This document shows, one piece after another, positions 1 to 8,701 of a stretch of DNA of 29,430 nt (positions are counted from its first letter, which is position 1; the number at the start of each line of letters is the position of its first letter). This stretch comes from a virus (taxonomy: Duplodnaviria; Heunggongvirae; Uroviricota; Caudoviricetes), in the IMG/VR virus record IMGVR_UViG_2778261668_000002, one strand, 5' to 3'. Below the pieces are notes generated by a model that saw nothing but the letters and a program-made list of their open reading frames with translations, was not told where the DNA came from and made no database searches. A program made the translations under genes and the position numbers.

Positions 1-981
1 TTATAACGTCACTCCGCCTTTTAGTGGATTCAGAGCGACGGCATTTTGCAGATAGTCAGGCGCAAGGTGCGCATAGGCCATCGTCTGCTGAATGCTCGCA
101 TGTCCCAGAATCTGTTGCAGTGCGATTATATTGCCCCCATTCATCATGAAATGGCTTGCGAATGTATGCCGCAGGATGTGGGTTGCCTGATTGGGTGGTA
201 TATCAGGTTTCACTCTGCGTAAAATCCCGCAAAATTTCTCATAATCAACTTTGAATAATTTGGCGCTGGCCTCCTCTTTAACTTTTTTCTCCAGTTCCTC
301 AGAAATCGGCACGGTTCGCTTTTTACCGTTTTTGGTTTTCAGGAAGGTAACCCTGCAATTTGTAATCTGTGCTGGTTTTAGCGTGGCAACTTCCGTCCAT
401 CTTCCTCCAGTGCTCAGACATAAAAGCGCGACAAGTAAGTCATCACCAGCCAAAACATTTAACAGTTTTTCGATTTCTGCTTTTTCCAGGAACGTCATTT
501 CAGGGTTGGCCTCCGCCAGTGGCGGCAGTCCGTGAATTGGGTGTTGCCCGGAAAATTCATCCAATTGAATTAATTTTGTGAACATGCCGGATAATCGGTA
601 CATGTCACGGTTTATCGTTGCGGCACTGATACCATCACGTAATCGCATGGAACGATAATCCATCAAAGCCCTTTTGCTCATCCTGCTCACTGGTATATCA
701 CCTATGCCGCTGATGGTTTTGAGTAGATGATTAAACTCTTTTGTTCCATGCTCGTGGTTTTGCCCGTGATATTTCCACCAGATGTCCAGCAACTCACTCA
801 AAGTCCGGCGGTCTGCTCGCTGGCCTCCCCATTCTTTCTGACTGGCATTGGCGATTGTGTATCGCTCAAATGCTAGTGCTTCAGCTTTTCTTTCGAATTT
901 CCTGCGGATGCGTTTTCCGTCGCGACCGCGAGGTCTAATGTCCACTTCATAGCGACCATCATCGAGCTTCTTAATTGCCAT
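1..981 (-). CDS. int: Tyrosine site-specific integrase (P2 Int family)
   Basis: Minus-strand ORF ending at position 1 with a C-terminal tyrosine-recombinase region (LRHTFASHFMMNGGNIIALQQILGH...MAYAH). Start placed at the ATG at 979-981 (MAIKKLDDGRYEV), which has a GGAGG Shine-Dalgarno 8 nt upstream; the track's longer ORF to 1011 has no ribosome-binding site. Confidence 0.9.
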   Translation of the reverse strand: MAIKKLDDGRYEVDIRPRGRDGKRIRRKFERKAEALAFERYTIANASQKEWGGQRADRRTLSELLDIWWKYHGQNHEHGTKEFNHLLKTISGIGDIPVSRMSKRALMDYRSMRLRDGISAATINRDMYRLSGMFTKLIQLDEFSGQHPIHGLPPLAEANPEMTFLEKAEIEKLLNVLAGDDLLVALLCLSTGGRWTEVATLKPAQITNCRVTFLKTKNGKKRTVPISEELEKKVKEEASAKLFKVDYEKFCGILRRVKPDIPPNQATHILRHTFASHFMMNGGNIIALQQILGHASIQQTMAYAHLAPDYLQNAVALNPLKGGVTL

Positions 982-1050
982 AAGAAAGCCCTCCGGCGCT
1001 GTATTCACCATCTTGGTAGCAAATGGTGAAAATGTAATCTTTATATAGAG

Positions 1051-1344
1051 TTAGCCAATCCTTTTCGCGGAGTGGTTGGACTCTGTTGACTCTGGCCCAA
1101 TGTGCGCGAGAGCCGGTGCGATTTGTCCTGCGTCCGGCGCGGTTTTATCTGTCATAAGCCATAGAGCATATTTTTGGAATGTGGGATGCATAGTGATTTT
1201 TAGCAAAGCTGTGCCACCGGGTTCAAAGTTTCCTCCTTCATATTTTTTAAGTGTGCTTAGCGGTAACTCTATGATTTCACAGAATTTTGATTGGCTTAGC
1301 CCTTCAGCCTCACGCAAGGCCTTAATCTTTTCGCTTAATTTCAT
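1051..1344 (-). CDS. C: Immunity repressor, P2 C-like HTH protein
   Basis: 97-aa minus-strand ORF divergent from cox, with an N-terminal helix-turn-helix (LSQSKFCEIIELPLSTLKKYEGG) and the P2 C-like motif QIAPALAHIGPE; it sits between int and cox. Confidence 0.8.
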   Translation of the reverse strand: MKLSEKIKALREAEGLSQSKFCEIIELPLSTLKKYEGGNFEPGGTALLKITMHPTFQKYALWLMTDKTAPDAGQIAPALAHIGPESTESNHSAKRIG

Positions 1345-3237: not shown

Positions 3238-3509
3238 GTATTCGTATTGAAATTGGCGAACGTTATGTCGTTACCAGTGACAGCTTTCAGTTTATTCTCC
3301 ACGAGAAAAAGAGAGCGGAAAGCGGTAAAAACGCCGGTCAGGAATGGCTGGCAGTGGTTGGTTATTACCCGAAATTAAGCCAGCTCGTTTCCGGCCTGAT
3401 GCATCACGATATTCTGACCGGAAGCGCAAAGTCTTTTGCTGATTTAAACGCGCAGGTTGAGCAACTCAGCAGGCGTTGTTCAGAGGCTTTTGGCTCATAT
3501 GGCCGTTAA
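3234..3509 (+). CDS. Early protein of unknown function (position of P2 orf83)
   Basis: 91-aa ORF with GGAG ribosome-binding site; overlaps the A start by 11 nt. Confidence 0.55.
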   Translation: MSIRIEIGERYVVTSDSFQFILHEKKRAESGKNAGQEWLAVVGYYPKLSQLVSGLMHHDILTGSAKSFADLNAQVEQLSRRCSEAFGSYGR

Positions 3510-5784
3510 AGCCTCCGGGCGTTTTGTCCCTCCGTCAGCATTTGCCGCAGGCACCGGTAAGGCGTTTACCGGTGCTTATGCATGGAACGCGCCACGCGAG
3601 GCCGTCGGGCGGGAAAGACCCCTTACACGTGACGAGATGCGTCAGGTGCAAGGTGTTTTATCCACGATTAACCGCCTGCCTTACTTTTTGCGCTCGCTGT
3701 TTACTTCACGCTATGACTACATCCGGCGCAATAAAAGCCCGGTGCACGGGTTTTATTTCCTCACATCCACTTTTCAGCGTCGTTTATGGCCGCGCATTGA
3801 GCGTGTGAATCAGCGCCATGAAATGAACACCGACGCGTCGTTGCTGTTTCTGGCAGAGCGCGACCAGTATGCGCGCCTGCCGGGGATGAATGACAAGGAG
3901 CTGAAAAAGTTTGCCGCCCGAATCTCATCGCAGCTTTTCATGATGTATGAGGAACTCTGCGATGCCTGGGTGGATGCGCATGGCGAAAAAGAATCGCTGT
4001 TTACGGATGAGGCGCAGGCTCACCTGTATGGTCATGTTGCTGGCGCTGCACGTGCTTTCAATATTTCCCCGCTTTACTGGAGAAAATACCGTAAAGGGCA
4101 GATGACCACGAGGCAGGCATATTCTGCCATTGCTCGCCTGTTTAACGATGAGTGGTGGATTAGTCAGCTTAAAGGCCAGCGTATGCGCTGGCATGAGGCG
4201 TTACTGATTGCTGTCGGGGAGGTCAATAAAGACCGTTCACCTTATGCCAGTAAACATGCCATTCGTGATGTGCGTGCGCGCCGCCAGGCAAATCTGGAAT
4301 TTCTTAAATCGTGTGACCTTGAAAACAGGGAAACCGGCGAGCGCATCGACCTTATCAGTAAGGTGATGGGCAGTATTTCTAATCCTGAAATTCGCCGGAT
4401 GGAGCTGATGAACACCATTGCCGGTATTGAGCGTTACGCCGCCTCAGAGGGTGATGTGGGGATGTTTATCACGCTTACCGCGCCGTCAAAGTATCACCCG
4501 ACACGTCAGGTTGGAAAAGGCGAAAATAAAACCGTCCAGCTTAATCACGGCTGGAATGATGAGGCATTTAATCCAAAGGATGCGCAGCGTTATCTCTGCC
4601 GTATCTGGAGCCTGATGCGCACGGCATTCAAGGATAATGATTTACAGGTCTACGGTTTGCGAGTCGTCGAGCCACACCACGACGGAACGCCGCACTGGCA
4701 TATGATGCTTTTTTGTAATCCACGCCAGCGTAACCAGATTATCGAAATCATGCGTCGCTATGCGCTCAAAGAGGATGGCGACGAAAGAGGAGCCGCGCGA
4801 AACCGTTTTCAGGCAAAACACCTTAACCGGGGCGGTGCTGCGGGATATATCGCGAAATACATTTCAAAAAATATCGACGGCTATGCACTGGATGGTCAGC
4901 TCGATAACGATACCGGCAGGCCGCTGAAAGACACTGCCGCGGCTGTTACCGCATGGGCGTCAACGTGGCGCATTCCGCAATTTAAAACGGTTGGCCTGCC
5001 GACAATGGGGGCTTACCGTGAACTACGCAAATTGCCTCGCGGCGTCAGCATTGCTGATGAGTTTGACGAGCGCGTCGAGGCTGCACGCGCCGCCGCAGAC
5101 AGTGGCGATTTTGCGTTGTATATCAGCGCGCAGGGTGGGGCAAATGTCCCGCGCGATTGTCAGACTGTCAGGGTCGCCCGTAGCCCGTCGGATGACGTTA
5201 ACGAGTACGAGGAAGAAGTCGAGAGAGTGGTCGGCATTTACGCGCCGCATCTCGGCGCGCGTCATATTCATATCACCAGAACGACGGACTGGCGCATTGT
5301 GCCGAAAGTTCCGGTCGTTGAGCCTTTGACTTTAAAAAGCGGCATCGCCGCGCCTCGGAGTCCTGTCAATAACTGTGGAAAGCTCACTGGTGGTGATACT
5401 TCGTTACCGGCTCCCACACCTTCTGAGCACGCCGCCGCAGTGCTTAATCTGGTTGATGACGGTGTTATCGAATGGAATGACCCGGAGGTCGTGAGGGCGC
5501 TCAGGGGCGCATTAAAACACGACCTGAGAACACCAAACCGTCAGCAAAGAAGCGGAAGCCCGTTAAAAGCGCATGAAATAGCGCCATCGGCCAGACTGAC
5601 CCGGTCGGAACGAATGCAAATTACCCGTATCCGCGTTGACCTTGCTCAGAACGGTATCAGGCCGCAGCGATGGGAGCTTGAGGCGCTGGTGCGTGGCGCG
5701 ACCGTAAATTATGACGGGAAAAAATTCACGTATCCGGTCGCTGATGAGTGGCCGGGATTCTCAACAGTAATGGAGTGGACATGA
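3499..5784 (+). CDS. A: Rolling-circle replication initiator endonuclease (P2 gpA family)
   Basis: 761-aa product from the ATG at 3499 (MAVKASGRF...; the track's ORF starts at an upstream TTG). Contains a metal-binding HxH motif (EPHHDGTPHWHMMLF) and a catalytic-tyrosine motif (GYIAKYISKNIDGY) typical of rolling-circle Rep proteins. Confidence 0.9.
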   Translation: MAVKASGRFVPPSAFAAGTGKAFTGAYAWNAPREAVGRERPLTRDEMRQVQGVLSTINRLPYFLRSLFTSRYDYIRRNKSPVHGFYFLTSTFQRRLWPRIERVNQRHEMNTDASLLFLAERDQYARLPGMNDKELKKFAARISSQLFMMYEELCDAWVDAHGEKESLFTDEAQAHLYGHVAGAARAFNISPLYWRKYRKGQMTTRQAYSAIARLFNDEWWISQLKGQRMRWHEALLIAVGEVNKDRSPYASKHAIRDVRARRQANLEFLKSCDLENRETGERIDLISKVMGSISNPEIRRMELMNTIAGIERYAASEGDVGMFITLTAPSKYHPTRQVGKGENKTVQLNHGWNDEAFNPKDAQRYLCRIWSLMRTAFKDNDLQVYGLRVVEPHHDGTPHWHMMLFCNPRQRNQIIEIMRRYALKEDGDERGAARNRFQAKHLNRGGAAGYIAKYISKNIDGYALDGQLDNDTGRPLKDTAAAVTAWASTWRIPQFKTVGLPTMGAYRELRKLPRGVSIADEFDERVEAARAAADSGDFALYISAQGGANVPRDCQTVRVARSPSDDVNEYEEEVERVVGIYAPHLGARHIHITRTTDWRIVPKVPVVEPLTLKSGIAAPRSPVNNCGKLTGGDTSLPAPTPSEHAAAVLNLVDDGVIEWNDPEVVRALRGALKHDLRTPNRQQRSGSPLKAHEIAPSARLTRSERMQITRIRVDLAQNGIRPQRWELEALVRGATVNYDGKKFTYPVADEWPGFSTVMEWT

Positions 5785-6236
5785 TGGCAAAAATTCACGA
5801 GGTAAAGCTGCACGCAAAATATTTTGACCTTGTGCTGGAAGGAAAGAAACGCGCAGAGTTTCGGAAAAATGACCGTAATTATGAGCGCGGGGACACGTTG
5901 ATTTTGCATGAATGGGCGCAGGGTGTGTATACGGGGCGAAAGGTTGAAGCCCGGATAACAGATGTTACTGACCTGTCAGACTGGCTGGAAGATTATGTCT
6001 TGCTAAGTATTGAGCTGCTTAATACAGGCGCATATGAGATTGTGAACTGGAAAGAACTTAGTGAGCGTGGTCTGGTATTCAGAATTAATCATGAAATTAT
6101 GCATCAGCTCGGCCTTGCTGTTATGTATGCACCAGAGACGGGGATGTCTGGCGGGGCAATGGTTGCCACGGATGGAGCATGGAACTATTCAGATGAACAG
6201 ATTGAGCGTGCAAAGCAAAACGGGTGGCTTGGATAA
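5781..6236 (+). CDS. ASCH/PUA-like (DUF3850-type) protein with a C-terminal extension containing an HExxH motif
   Basis: Start ATG overlaps the A stop (ATGA at 5781-5784). N-terminal EVKLHAKYFDLVLEGKKRAEFRKNDRNYERGDTLILHEW resembles ASCH-like domains; the C-terminal part contains NHEIMH. Confidence 0.55.
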   Translation: MMAKIHEVKLHAKYFDLVLEGKKRAEFRKNDRNYERGDTLILHEWAQGVYTGRKVEARITDVTDLSDWLEDYVLLSIELLNTGAYEIVNWKELSERGLVFRINHEIMHQLGLAVMYAPETGMSGGAMVATDGAWNYSDEQIERAKQNGWLG

Positions 6237-6442
6237 TGCACAGAATACCGGGCGAGATACCGCAACATAACACTAAAAATATCAAGCTGATGGCTATTGT
6301 TCACCGTCTACAGCAGATTATGGTCAACGAAAATCTGACGCCTGACGAGCTGGTCGGGTGTGCCGAAATAGTCCGGGATAATTACGGGCGGCTTAATTAT
6401 ATCCGTCAGTCCAGAGTTGCTCCACCGCCACGCAGACTATAG
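6236..6442 (+). CDS. Small hypothetical protein, translationally coupled to the ASCH-like gene
   Basis: TAATG overlap at 6234-6238; 68 aa; no recognisable motif. The track shows it from a GTG at 6224. Confidence 0.4.
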   Translation: MHRIPGEIPQHNTKNIKLMAIVHRLQQIMVNENLTPDELVGCAEIVRDNYGRLNYIRQSRVAPPPRRL

Positions 6443-6616
6443 AAAACGCCGTCAGTCTTGAAACTTGTTTTCAGGGCTGGCGGGGTTGAACAACGAGCAT
6501 CGCGAGGCGTTAGTGGTATTGGAACCAATGAGAAAACAAAAAACTCAACGCCTCCCCTCATGTTTGATGGTATGGTCTTGTTTTTAGGTAATGAAGCTTT
6601 ATTCGGGTGACGTGTC

Positions 6617-6622
6617 TAATAT
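6617..6622 (+). promoter_or_regulatory. Candidate -10 element (TAATAT) for the cargo gene
   Basis: TAATAT lies 36 nt upstream of the 6658 ATG in the AT-rich leader; no convincing -35 hexamer, so this is weak. Confidence 0.3.
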
Positions 6623-6657
6623 AGCTTTCTGCATGACGTTAGAATGATGATGAGATC

Positions 6658-7260
6658 ATGTTATTAATGAATGAGAAAAAAAGACAAAAATATCTAAAGA
6701 TAATGTTTGAATGTCAAAAGCGACTTGAAACACTTCATGCTTTATCATCTGGAAGGATTGATGGCATTTATTTTCAAGTGTTAATTGAAATGGAGGCGTT
6801 GCAGCTTAGGAAGCTACTAGAGCTCATTGCATTTTCATCTCTAATTTCACATGAAAAAGCATACGAGAAGGTTACAAAGAAGATTGATGGTGTATGGAAG
6901 GCGAAGAATATATTTAAAGAGTTGGAAAAGATAAACCCTAACTTTTATCCAGTACCAATATCAGGAGTAACCAAAACGGGCTGGACGAAACTAACGGGAG
7001 GTTTTTTGACGAAAAAACAGTTTATCAAGCTATATGATGAATGCTCAAAACATATTCACGTAAGGAACCCATATCGGGTTAGGGAAAACTCGCTGGGGTT
7101 TCATAAAAAAGTTCCAGAGTATTTATCAAGAATTGAAACTCTACTGTTAAAGCACATTGTTTCTCTTGCCGGGAATGAAGAACTTCTTCTTGTAGATGTG
7201 CCTCATTATGAAGACTCTGTAACAGCTATAAAAATGAGCCACCTCGTTAAAATGGGGTGA
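6658..7260 (+). CDS. Orphan AT-rich cargo gene in the P2 tin/old-equivalent slot; candidate single-gene anti-phage defence or abortive-infection protein
   Basis: 200-aa ORF (start 6658 or 6667) in an island of about 30-35% G+C by hand count; K/E-rich, no transmembrane segment; preceded by a 215-bp non-coding AT-rich leader and followed by a hairpin terminator; sits between replication gene A and cos. Confidence 0.65.
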   Translation: MLLMNEKKRQKYLKIMFECQKRLETLHALSSGRIDGIYFQVLIEMEALQLRKLLELIAFSSLISHEKAYEKVTKKIDGVWKAKNIFKELEKINPNFYPVPISGVTKTGWTKLTGGFLTKKQFIKLYDECSKHIHVRNPYRVRENSLGFHKKVPEYLSRIETLLLKHIVSLAGNEELLLVDVPHYEDSVTAIKMSHLVKMG

Positions 7261-7295
7261 AAAATAAGCAATAAATAGTCGATTCTAGTGAACGG

Positions 7296-7320
7296 TCGGC
7301 TATTTTTAGCCGGATTTTTA
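7296..7320 (+). terminator. Rho-independent terminator after the cargo gene
   Basis: Stem CGGCT (7297-7301) / AGCCG (7308-7312) with a T-rich loop, followed by GATTTTTA. Confidence 0.5.
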
Positions 7321-7478
7321 TACTGTTTCCCCTTAATTACAGTCGTTTCTATTCATGCATGTGCTATTGCATCGAATTGCATGCGTTTTCATCCCCTGTT
7401 GCTTATGAGCGTTGTCAGTGCTGGCGCATTCTCGGTATGTTCATGCAACTGCATCAAAATCGCCCCATGAAGCGGGCG

Positions 7479-7497
7479 GGCGAGGCGGGGAAAGCAC
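7479..7497. other. cos cohesive-end site of P2-type phages
   Basis: GGCGAGGCGGGGAAAGCAC matches my recollection of the 19-nt P2 cohesive end; it lies where cos is expected, between the cargo locus and portal gene Q. Confidence 0.55.
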
Positions 7498-7639
7498 TGC
7501 GCGCTGGCGGTGGTGCTGATTTTATTTTTTCGGCGTCTCAGCGCGTCGTGATGGCGTTTAGATTGTGTGCCGGGGCGTCGGTGTGTCTGCGGGCTGTTTT
7601 GCGTGGAGGTGAGCGTGTGAGGGCGTGATGACGGGGTGT

Positions 7640-7661
7640 AAAAAAGCCGCCCGCAGGCGGC
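7640..7661 (-). terminator. Rho-independent terminator of the P-Q operon
   Basis: On the minus strand GCCGCC-(4 nt loop)-GGCGGC followed by TTTTTT, immediately downstream of the Q stop at 7667. Confidence 0.6.
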
Positions 7662-7666
7662 GATGT

Positions 7667-8701
7667 TCAGCCGTTGTCAGTGTCCAGTGAGTAGTTTTTA
7701 AAGCGGATGACCTCCTGACCGAGCCAGCCGTTTATCTCGCGGATCCTGTCCTGTAGCGGGATAAGCTCATTGCGGACAAAGACCTTTGCCACTTTCTCAA
7801 TATCACCCAACGACCCGACGTTCTCCGGCTTGCCGCCCATCAACTGAAAGGGGATGCGGTGCGCGTCCAGCAGGTCAGCGGCGCTGGCTTTTTTGATATT
7901 AAAAAAATCGTCCTTCGTTGCCACTTCACTGAGCGGGATAATTTTAATGCCGTCGGCTTTCCCCTGCGGGGCATAGAGAAACAGATTTTTAAAGTTGTTG
8001 CGGCCTTTCGACTTCACCATGTTTTCGCGAAGCATTTCGATATCGTTGCGATCCTGCACGGCATCAGTGACGTACATGATGTATCCGGCATGTGCGCCGT
8101 TTTCGTAATACTTGCGGCGAAACAGCGTGGCCGACTCATTCAGCCAGGCAGAATTAAGGGCGCTGAGATATTCCGGCAGGCCGTACAGCTCCTGATTAAT
8201 ATCCGGCTCCAGCAGGTGAAACACGGAGCCGGGCGTGAAGGCTGTCGGCTCGTTGAAGGACGGCACCCACCAGTAAACATCCTCTTCCACACCACGGCGG
8301 GTATATTTTGCCGGTGAGGTTTCCAGTCTGATGACCTTACCGGTGGTGCTGTATCGCTTTTCCAGAAACGCATTACCGAACACCAGAAAATCCAGCACAA
8401 AGCGGCTGAAATCCTGTTGCGAAAGCCACGGGTGCGGGATAAACGTTGAAGCCAGAATATTGCGTTTGACGTAAATCGGTGAGCTGTGATGCACGGCAGC
8501 ACGCAGGCTTTTTGCCAGACCGGTAAAGCTGACCGGTGGCTCATACCATCTGCCGTTACTGATACACTCGACGTAATCCAGAATGTCACGGCGGTCGAGT
8601 ACCGGCACCGGCTCACCAAAGGTGAATGCCTCCATTTTCGGGGCGCTGGCGGTCATTGTTTTTGCCGCAGGTTGCGGTGTTTTCCCTTTTTTCTTGCTCA
8701 T
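7667..8701 (-). CDS. Q: Portal protein (P2 gpQ family)
   Basis: 344-aa minus-strand ORF adjacent to cos; its start overlaps the P stop (TGATG); length matches P2 Q. Confidence 0.9.
   Translation of the reverse strand: MSKKKGKTPQPAAKTMTASAPKMEAFTFGEPVPVLDRRDILDYVECISNGRWYEPPVSFTGLAKSLRAAVHHSSPIYVKRNILASTFIPHPWLSQQDFSRFVLDFLVFGNAFLEKRYSTTGKVIRLETSPAKYTRRGVEEDVYWWVPSFNEPTAFTPGSVFHLLEPDINQELYGLPEYLSALNSAWLNESATLFRRKYYENGAHAGYIMYVTDAVQDRNDIEMLRENMVKSKGRNNFKNLFLYAPQGKADGIKIIPLSEVATKDDFFNIKKASAADLLDAHRIPFQLMGGKPENVGSLGDIEKVAKVFVRNELIPLQDRIREINGWLGQEVIRFKNYSLDTDNG

Follow-up and report, generated by a model that had tools for sequence, protein, structure and literature searches.

A conserved hairpin-plus-tail element at the left border of the A-to-cos variable region of a P2-like prophage

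The virus record IMGVR_UViG_2778261668_000002, a DNA stretch of 29,430 nucleotides (hereafter the window), was assigned by its sequence to the P2-like (Peduovirus) prophages: positions 5700-7700 were 99% identical to Yersinia phage vB_YpM_50, a Peduovirus, and the open reading frames (ORFs) followed the P2 gene order. Between replication gene A and portal gene Q, adjoining cos, it carries a cargo gene in a place where relatives carry different cargo, which is the layout of the P2 defence hotspot. We analyzed the interval in front of this cargo gene, 6443-6657, which a preliminary description had taken for a 215-bp AT-rich non-coding leader with an 8-bp inverted repeat. The interval consists of two unrelated pieces joined at 6513/6514. 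The upstream piece is a 73-nt element, here called E, that belongs to the phage backbone; the downstream piece is a leader specific to the cargo lineage (Table 1).

The stretch between A and Q, beside cos, corresponds to the variable defence hotspot reported for P2-like phages, whose authors left the mechanism of exchange open and speculated on the cos ends (Rousset et al. 2022, PMC9122126). On the backbone side of the junction the final gene is a 72-aa ORF that matched phrog_11386 in PHROG (E = 2.7e-41) and is annotated in relatives; its TAG stop codon overlaps the first bases of E.

Table 1. Features of the window around the backbone/cargo junction and in the flanking backbone.
Feature	Position	Strand	Basis or remark
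int, P2-type Int	1-1011	-	ORF list
C	1051-1344	-	ORF list
Replication gene A	3457-5784		ORF list
orf91/DUF3850	5748-6236		ORF list and domain match
Last backbone gene before the junction, 72-aa ORF	6224-6442	+	Like W-phi gp92 and P2-EC67 ORF73
Element E, 73-nt hairpin plus tail at the left border of the variable region	6441-6513	+	Covariance model R1
Hairpin of E, 19 pairs, apex CUUGAAAC-UUG-UUUUCAG	6445-6487	+	Folding and covariation
Conserved single-stranded tail of E, 26 nt, GAACAACGAGC-NNN-GCGAGGCGTTAG	6488-6513	+	Alignment A1; holds left repeat arm 6504-6511
8-bp inverted repeat of the preliminary description, judged coincidental	6504-6554	+	Frequency, fold, cross-junction comparison
Backbone/cargo junction	6513/6514	.	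Megablast and pairwise BLAST breakpoints 6513-6517; 23 downstream classes
Lineage-specific AT-rich cargo leader	6514-6666	+	Holds right repeat arm 6547-6554, A-tract and weak -10-like hexamers
Cargo gene, 197 aa from ATG 6667, phrog_13799	6667-7260	+	PHROG profile
Terminator-like hairpin plus T-run after the cargo gene	7296-7320	+	Terminator scan; first canonical terminator 3' of E
Right border zone	7368-7478	.	Return of backbone homology varies with the phage compared
19-nt sequence taken to be the P2 cos cohesive end, GGCGAGGCGGGGAAAGCAC	7479-7497	+	Exact match
Portal gene Q	7667-8701	-	ORF list

At the junction, the homology of the window to phages with other cargos comes to an end. In a megablast comparison with phage genomes, dozens of P2-like phages matched only up to window position 6513-6514 (query 814-815), and junctions read directly in W-phi, in P24A7b/P22H4/9W/S164 and in YpM_46/P2-EC67 shared ...GCGAGGCGTTAG and then diverged completely. 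By pairwise BLAST, the backbone was 96-98% identical on either side of the cargo; identity collapsed at 6513-6517 and returned at 7368-7450. A wider sample was obtained with two scans of IMG/VR, one with a 23-mer and one with the upstream 72-aa protein, which yielded 138 copies of E in 129 loci. GTTAG formed the final 5 nt of E in 130 of these copies, and the 80 nt 3' of E fell into 23 unrelated sequence clusters that started directly after TTAG. Across these 23 cargo classes the junction was sharp to 0-3 nt.

The window and locus L011 carried identical copies of E followed by unrelated cargos, both starting with TGGT. This start at 6514-6517, shared by the window with L011, L016 and L055, could be microhomology at the junction of a recent replacement. 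The same TGGTTTT cargo was also found behind a different E variant, in L128. At the other end of the cargo island, about 100 nt to the left of cos (~7345-7385), lie palindromes of the type TGCAT-N(5-8)-ATGCA (for example, TGCATCGAATTGCATGC); palindromes of the same type were present at the equivalent position in L006, L012, L014, L019, L036, L137 and others, in surrounding DNA that was divergent. They may represent a candidate packaging-related protein-binding site.

Covariance model R1 detected E with 96 bits on the + strand (E = 2e-25) and 22 bits on the - strand, as a single copy in the window, with a G+C content of 53%. Its hairpin, 43 nt long with a 5-nt loop and three G.U pairs in the window copy, is the strongest structure of the interval and dominated the fold. 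The + strand folded at -29.6 kcal/mol (z = -3.6) and the complement at -13.4 (z = -0.1). In alignment A1, composed of 42 distinct copies of E, 91% of the stem cells were paired, and 9 of the 19 pairs had changed on both sides (compensatory changes). None of 500 shuffles was as good as the real stem on any measure, and partners slid out of register gave at most 49% pairing. In three loci, L109 (CCCTGCAGGTG/CACCTGCAGGG), L057 and L099, the stem was entirely different and pairing was kept; mismatches recurred only at pairs 8-46 and 19-35, and the apex UGAAAC-NNG-NUUUCA was nearly invariant. There were 67 G.U cells in the stem versus 7 A.C cells. Because G.U cells exceeded A.C cells and the fold deviated from expectation on the + strand only, the structure of E is specific to that strand. 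The same excess, together with the position of E after + strand stop codons, suggests that E is transcribed on the + strand.

The tail was conserved as well. Its end follows the pattern ...GTTGAACAACGAGC-NNN-GCGAGGCGTTAG, and its mean column identity in A1 (0.88) equaled that of the outer stem. A scan of Rfam 15 at E <= 5 gave no match beyond noise in 5700-7800 or in the phage 186 copy.

E was present in phages of Escherichia, Yersinia, Salmonella, Klebsiella and Erwinia, phage 186 included, and is common to the genera Peduovirus and Eganvirus. It occurred in 498 of 5426 complete E. coli genomes (~9%), at no more than two copies each, and in IncC plasmids solely inside integrated P2-like prophages. 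Of 67 distinct contexts, 59 had an ORF of at least 50 aa whose end lay -1 to 8 nt from the hairpin. Some phages had repeated copies, always in + orientation. In eight loci the ORF72-like gene had E on both sides; in S164 and in nine further loci E followed the first cargo gene (orf97-like). The order in PSP3 was tumB-E-gp37-E-gp38. In the Salmonella enterica prophages L141-L144 it was orf97, a homolog of the window cargo, E (54 bits), the ORF72-like gene and E again (92 bits), so that in L141 the cargo gene and ORF72 are in the opposite order to that of the window. P37 had a degenerate hairpin only and was the sole case with the break beside the hairpin.

Alternatively, E might have no function of its own and be a conserved remnant, the 3' untranslated region of an ancestral gene, carried along by recombination of its neighbors. 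Most of the sampled phages are close relatives (96-98% backbone identity), P2 and Enterobacter prophages manage without E, and second copies of E are decayed (59, 54 and 46 bits, and 12 bits in PSP3). The compensatory changes and the wholly different stems in L109, L057 and L099, however, point to selection for pairing; between the window and phage 186, that is, between Peduovirus and Eganvirus, E is an island of 87% identity with barely alignable flanks; and its register with stop codons is strict. We therefore regard a functionless E as hardly probable.

The preliminary description had offered a terminator-like insulator after the A operon as one explanation of the interval, and this proposal proved partly apt. 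The stem of E has the G+C-rich hairpin and short loop of an intrinsic terminator. A U-rich tract is lacking: GUUGAACAACGAGC follows the stem, and the terminator scan was silent on E. In phage 186, E has orf97 on one side and on the other, 24 nt 3' of it, t95b, an annotated terminator formed by a canonical hairpin with U7; given t95b, E is not itself the terminator in 186.

On balance, we lean to the reading that E is an RNA hairpin ending a gene unit and, at the same time, a homology patch for cassette swapping, with 6514-6666 as the leader of the cargo lineage. We infer both roles from the anatomy and distribution of E described above. As part of the phage backbone, E would form on the sense transcript a long hairpin, starting from the stop codon of the upstream gene and followed by the conserved 26-nt tail, that would protect or process the 3' end of the mRNA and partly insulate transcription, acting as less than a full intrinsic terminator. 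Being the only conserved sequence between otherwise unrelated accessory genes, it would serve as the patch at which cassettes pass between P2-like and 186-like phages, and its 3' edge would be the sharp left border of the defence hotspot. The leader 6514-6666 presumably carries a weak promoter or just passes read-through transcripts, and the 8-bp repeat would be a chance complement between the tail of E and that leader.

Several points weigh against this reading. E is dispensable, as P2 itself has none, and it is absent from Enterobacter prophages that carry a homolog of the cargo gene. The RNA role is argued from strand bias and position, and a hairpin in + strand single-stranded DNA (ssDNA), formed in rolling-circle replication, would look identical. 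The tail is about as conserved as the hairpin apex, which a mere stabilizer would not need; this suggests a sequence-specific partner, and such conservation, unexplained by a stabilizing role, keeps readings of E as a site-specific or DNA-level signal alive. The window and L011 have the same E but different cargo; L128, the one sampled donor of that cargo, differs in the tail only 10 nt from the junction, and if it were the true donor the homology at the crossover would be too short for RecA, although sampling here is thin. Finally, the pairing of tail to leader in the window (-20.9 kcal/mol) was the strongest of 39 junction types and may have a role in this lineage.

E could also be a site-specific recombination site similar to attC/attI of integrons, with a putative recombinase that would put in or take out cassettes exactly at ...GTTAG|. 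The precision of 0-3 nt over 23 classes and the nearly constant GTTAG would suit such a site. Further, the hairpin reads AAC-stem-GTTGAAC, in which GTTGAAC fits GTTRRRY; the cassettes have the composition leader-gene-E and form repeated arrays in a single orientation; and the cargo family occurs behind GTTAAAC attC cores in marine gammaproteobacteria, once in an array of 83-nt repeats. Against this, the R'' box (RYYYAAC) and R' box (GTTRRRY) of attC pair over 7 bp, and in E, whose 5' box reads AGAGAAC or AGAAAAC, pairing is confined to AAC/GTT. Mostly pyrimidines come after the final GTTAG; counted from G|TT, position 6 is mostly a pyrimidine and position 7 any base, where attC would have R and Y. 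The cassette junction of attC is the G|TT of R', where the folded site has its base; in E the sequences diverge 26 nt 3' of the hairpin base, not at the GTT of the hairpin. With 43 nt, the nearly perfect hairpin is outside the attC length of 57-141 nt and has no extrahelical bases or unpaired central spacer. The ORF list, which is in P2 order, contained no integron integrase or extra recombinase gene, and neither IntI nor attI was recognized nearby, the domain search having covered only part of the ORFs. P2 Int is the only tyrosine recombinase in the window, and its core site is, we assume, unrelated to E. The fuzzy right border near cos is better in keeping with homologous exchange. For failing in core consensus, crossover position, extrahelical bases and integrase, E was rejected as an integron attC, and an attC/attI-like site in the wider sense is unlikely.

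A more general form of the idea, that E is a dedicated cassette-exchange site of the P2/186-like hotspot where a putative phage or host enzyme cuts and joins right after TTAG, seemed to us improbable as well. If true, it would make the hotspot a gene-capture platform of an integron-like or HUH/rolling-circle-like kind and would explain why gene families of integron cassettes appear as P2 cargo. The tail showed no likeness to a XerCD/dif site or a P2 attP-like core when compared by eye with the consensus sequences, no formal scan having been made.

E could instead act as DNA, either as a hairpin in + strand ssDNA or as a protein-binding site in duplex form; it might be a lagging-strand priming signal in the rolling-circle replication of P2, or might serve the HUH replicase gpA or terminase as a secondary target. 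The + strand bias would be consistent with G.T wobble in ssDNA as well. At 5338-5377 the window has the P2 ori nick sequence unaltered, with the annotated nick on the + strand; read on its - strand, the tail (ACGCCTCG|CGA) is similar to the nick site (GCGCCTCG|GAG), and GCGAGGCG is common to E and the cos cohesive end. The palindromic apex, TGAAAC...TTTCA, is invariant. These similarities of the tail to the gpA nick site or cos amount to a 7-8-mer, however, and are lost in the tail variants TGAGGCG, CGAGACG and TTTGGTG; a nick by gpA at this place would fall 11 nt from the junction; P2 replicates normally and has no E; and E and cos are spaced by anything from 255 nt to 3.4 kb. A DNA-level role is thus quite unlikely, and the nick-site or cos similarity of the tail was discarded.

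The 7-mer CGCCTCG is present at 5355-5361 on the + strand (gpA nick site) and, on the - strand, at 7481-7487 (cos complement) and 6503-6509 (complement of the E tail). Because it is not conserved among tail variants, this sharing is probably a coincidence. The 19-mer at cos, which we take to be the P2 cohesive end, agrees with how cosR is annotated in AF063097.

Other signals considered for E were rejected. The apex contains CTG-N11-CAG, off by one from the CTG-N10-CAG of a LexA box, and its TGAAAC/GTTTCA has the wrong half-site spacing for a Cra/FruR-like site. A promoter spanning the junction (TTGAAC-N19-TAGNNN) would have too long a spacer, and its -10 half is not conserved. There was no match to a sigma-54 site, and a small ORF through E is interrupted by stop codons in variants (CAATGAGC).

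The 8-bp inverted repeat, GAGGCGTT and AACGCCTC separated by 35 nt, was located exactly as the preliminary description had it, with the palindrome ATTGGAACCAAT in the spacer and an A-rich run at 6529-6545. Its two arms, however, lie on opposite sides of the junction: because backbone homology stops at 6513-6517, the left arm can be assigned to the last 10 nt of backbone that are conserved, and the right arm to cargo-specific DNA. As a signal the repeat did not stand out. A perfect 8-bp repeat with a loop of 3-60 nt was found in 130 of 585 real 215-nt windows of the sequence (22%) and in 12% of first-order Markov simulations of the region, and a second one occurs in the same interval, at 6465-6472 / 6532-6539 (TTGTTTTC / GAAAACAA). 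The 71-nt stem-loop containing the repeat folded at -17.6 kcal/mol, with z = -1.96. An 8-nt complement to the tail was unique to the window among 38 junction sequences; the others had 0-6 nt. When RNAduplex was applied to the tail and the next 100 nt in 39 junction types, the z-scores centered on zero, which rules out tail-leader pairing as a general property, and the value of the window (-2.08) was that of an expected extreme. Comparison across homologous islands gave no covariation in favor of the repeat, as leaders of different lineages are not homologous, and comparison within the lineage was uninformative, 21 E. coli copies being at least 98.8% identical. Covariation supported the secondary structure of E only. 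We judge the repeat to be a chance match straddling the junction, given that such repeats are common, that the complement is unique to the window and that its duplex z-score is ordinary.

A function of the repeat confined to this lineage was considered separately: tail 6493-6515 would pair with 6542-6566, and the resulting leader hairpin would attenuate or stabilize read-through into the cargo gene. In the fold of 6441-6570, whose z of -4.8 owes most to the E hairpin, this pairing grows to ~19 pairs, its duplex energy is the lowest of the 39 junction types, and its sequence is invariant in 21 genomes. Nevertheless, this is very improbable: the duplex z-score is what the extreme of 39 draws should give, no U-tract follows the stem, invariance says little in an island with an overall identity of at least 98.8%, the leaders of homologous cargo genes are unrelated, and repeats of this kind occur in more than a fifth of windows.

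The second repeat joins the 3' arm of the E hairpin to the A-rich tract of the leader and also spans the junction. GAGGCGTT itself occurs five times in the window, at 1691, 4195, 6504, 6547 (-) and 6793, versus 1.15 expected, and none of 100 shuffles reached five; three of these copies are less than 300 nt from the junction, one of them inside the cargo ORF.

The description of the interval as an AT-rich leader applied to only part of it. E, at 6441-6513, is not AT-rich, and the G+C content is ~33-37% from ~6515 onward. The non-coding part probably extends over 6443-6666, since the PHROG profile, every homolog and the annotation of vB_YpM_50 begin at residue 4 of the 200-aa ORF starting at 6658, and the start of the cargo gene is by this comparison probably the ATG at 6667. 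The interval does hold a conserved structured element at the end of the A operon before the cargo gene, namely E, rather than the flagged repeat, which shares only the last bases of E. The candidate -10 hexamer TAATAT is indeed at 6617-6622, but it has no acceptable -35 and does not qualify as a promoter. A sigma-70 consensus scan found no + strand promoter in the interval, and in 6514-6666 no -35/-10 pair with 16-18 nt spacing was present to serve the cargo gene. The best site in a scan with a position weight matrix, TAGAAT at 6640-6645 with a poor -35, had a score reached 1.6 times per kb by chance.

Among the 21 E. coli genomes that carry this cargo, the leader hardly differed. In more distant homologs of the cargo gene, nucleotide homology (~75%) started exactly at the ATG (6666/6667), and in Enterobacter it ended at the stop codon; the upstream DNA of these homologs was unrelated to the window leader. 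In L141-L144, an 83-nt leader with a good promoter-like site (TTGGCG-16 nt-TATAAT) stands in its place. Because homologous cargo genes have unrelated upstream DNA and share nothing upstream of the ATG, the suggested regulator site or structured RNA controlling the cargo gene (riboswitch or leader RNA) found no support.

The strongest sigma-70-like site nearby is on the - strand at 6689-6717 (TTGACA-17 nt-GATATT; 0.03 sites this good per kb). It is located in the 5' end of the cargo ORF and directed back over the start codon and the leader, and it is partly conserved in homologs, where coding constraint also acts.

The cargo protein had no match in Pfam, PADLOC or NCBIfam. Its invariant residues include R48, E52, H131 and H163. 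Its AlphaFold2 model was confident (pLDDT 88), with no significant Foldseek match in PDB, and weakly suggests a HEPN-like fold. The cargo island (6514-7380) was present in 21 of 5426 complete E. coli genomes, at no less than 98.8% identity and always behind the same E variant. Homologs with 71-77% protein identity occupied the same hotspot in P2/186-like prophages of Salmonella, Enterobacter and E. coli. Homologs of ~50% identity occurred in marine gammaproteobacteria (L048-L054; Shewanella, Halopseudomonas, Salinicola, Dasania and others), all preceded by ...GTTAAACGGTAAAGC-ATG, and in Halopseudomonas salina (L051) the homolog was part of an array of 83-nt repeats ending in GCGTTAAAC. Apparently, judging from these flanking sequences, the family also circulates as integron cassettes. 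The gene was broken in 2 of the 21 E. coli genomes carrying it, by loss of 1 nt from the A7 run at 6673-6679 in L135 (E. coli MLI104K2) and by an ISApl1 insertion after window position 7011 in L136 (E. coli ApSLC23).

For the observation with which the analysis began, the outcome is deflationary: neither the 8-bp repeat nor the proposed -10 was supported as a functional signal. By its coordinates it happens to include a genuine boundary element of the P2/186 defence hotspot. A nucleotide-level border element was not described in the accessible hotspot papers (PMC9122126 among them), and a text search of the literature with the E motif returned unrelated primers only, so that as a hotspot boundary element E is apparently undescribed. 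The novelty is tempered by the fact that its function is deduced and that analogous elements are known in other phages. E offers a concrete, mutable handle on two questions: whether cassettes are exchanged by homology-driven linkers or site-specifically, and what insulates the accessory genes from the early operon.

Among known systems, integron attC sites resemble E in following one gene each with an imperfect palindrome at its 3' side, in forming arrays of one orientation and in having a junction beside GTT; the core consensus, crossover position, extrahelical bases and integrase set them apart. The repetitive extragenic palindromic (REP) sequences and bacterial interspersed mosaic elements (BIMEs) of enterobacteria stabilize upstream mRNA and are prone to recombination. 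Like E, they form G+C-rich hairpins directly after stop codons within operons, but their sequences are not similar to that of E, which has a conserved 26-nt tail and no REP-associated tyrosine transposase (RAYT) and is restricted to the P2/186-like hotspot.

Boundary or 'linker' sequences have reportedly been described at module junctions of lambdoid phages (Clark et al. 2001 for HK620; the modular theory of Susskind and Botstein). These too are short and conserved, lie at boundaries between genes where mosaic joints accumulate, and are regarded as patches of homology; E differs in being longer (73 nt) and strand-specific, with a covarying structure, and in being locked to stop codons. Another parallel is offered by the cassettes with a promoter-early stem-loop (PeSL) that T4-type phages reportedly have in their hyperplastic regions (Arbiol et al. 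2010, Genome Biol Evol). In both cases a short, conserved intergenic stem-loop motif brackets unrelated accessory ORFs in a variable phage region, and for PeSL a role in transcription regulation and in modular shuffling by recombination between copies was proposed. PeSL contains an early promoter, whereas E has no convincing one, and sequence and phage family are unrelated.

The TO region of Nilsson et al. 2004 is said to be the same locus as the gpA-gpQ hotspot, of which the cargo island of the window, from 6514 to ~7345, is one instance. The published hotspot was defined at the gene level (PMC9122126); here its border is defined at the level of the nucleotide, and the motif ...GCGAGGCGTTAG provides a practical landmark for it.

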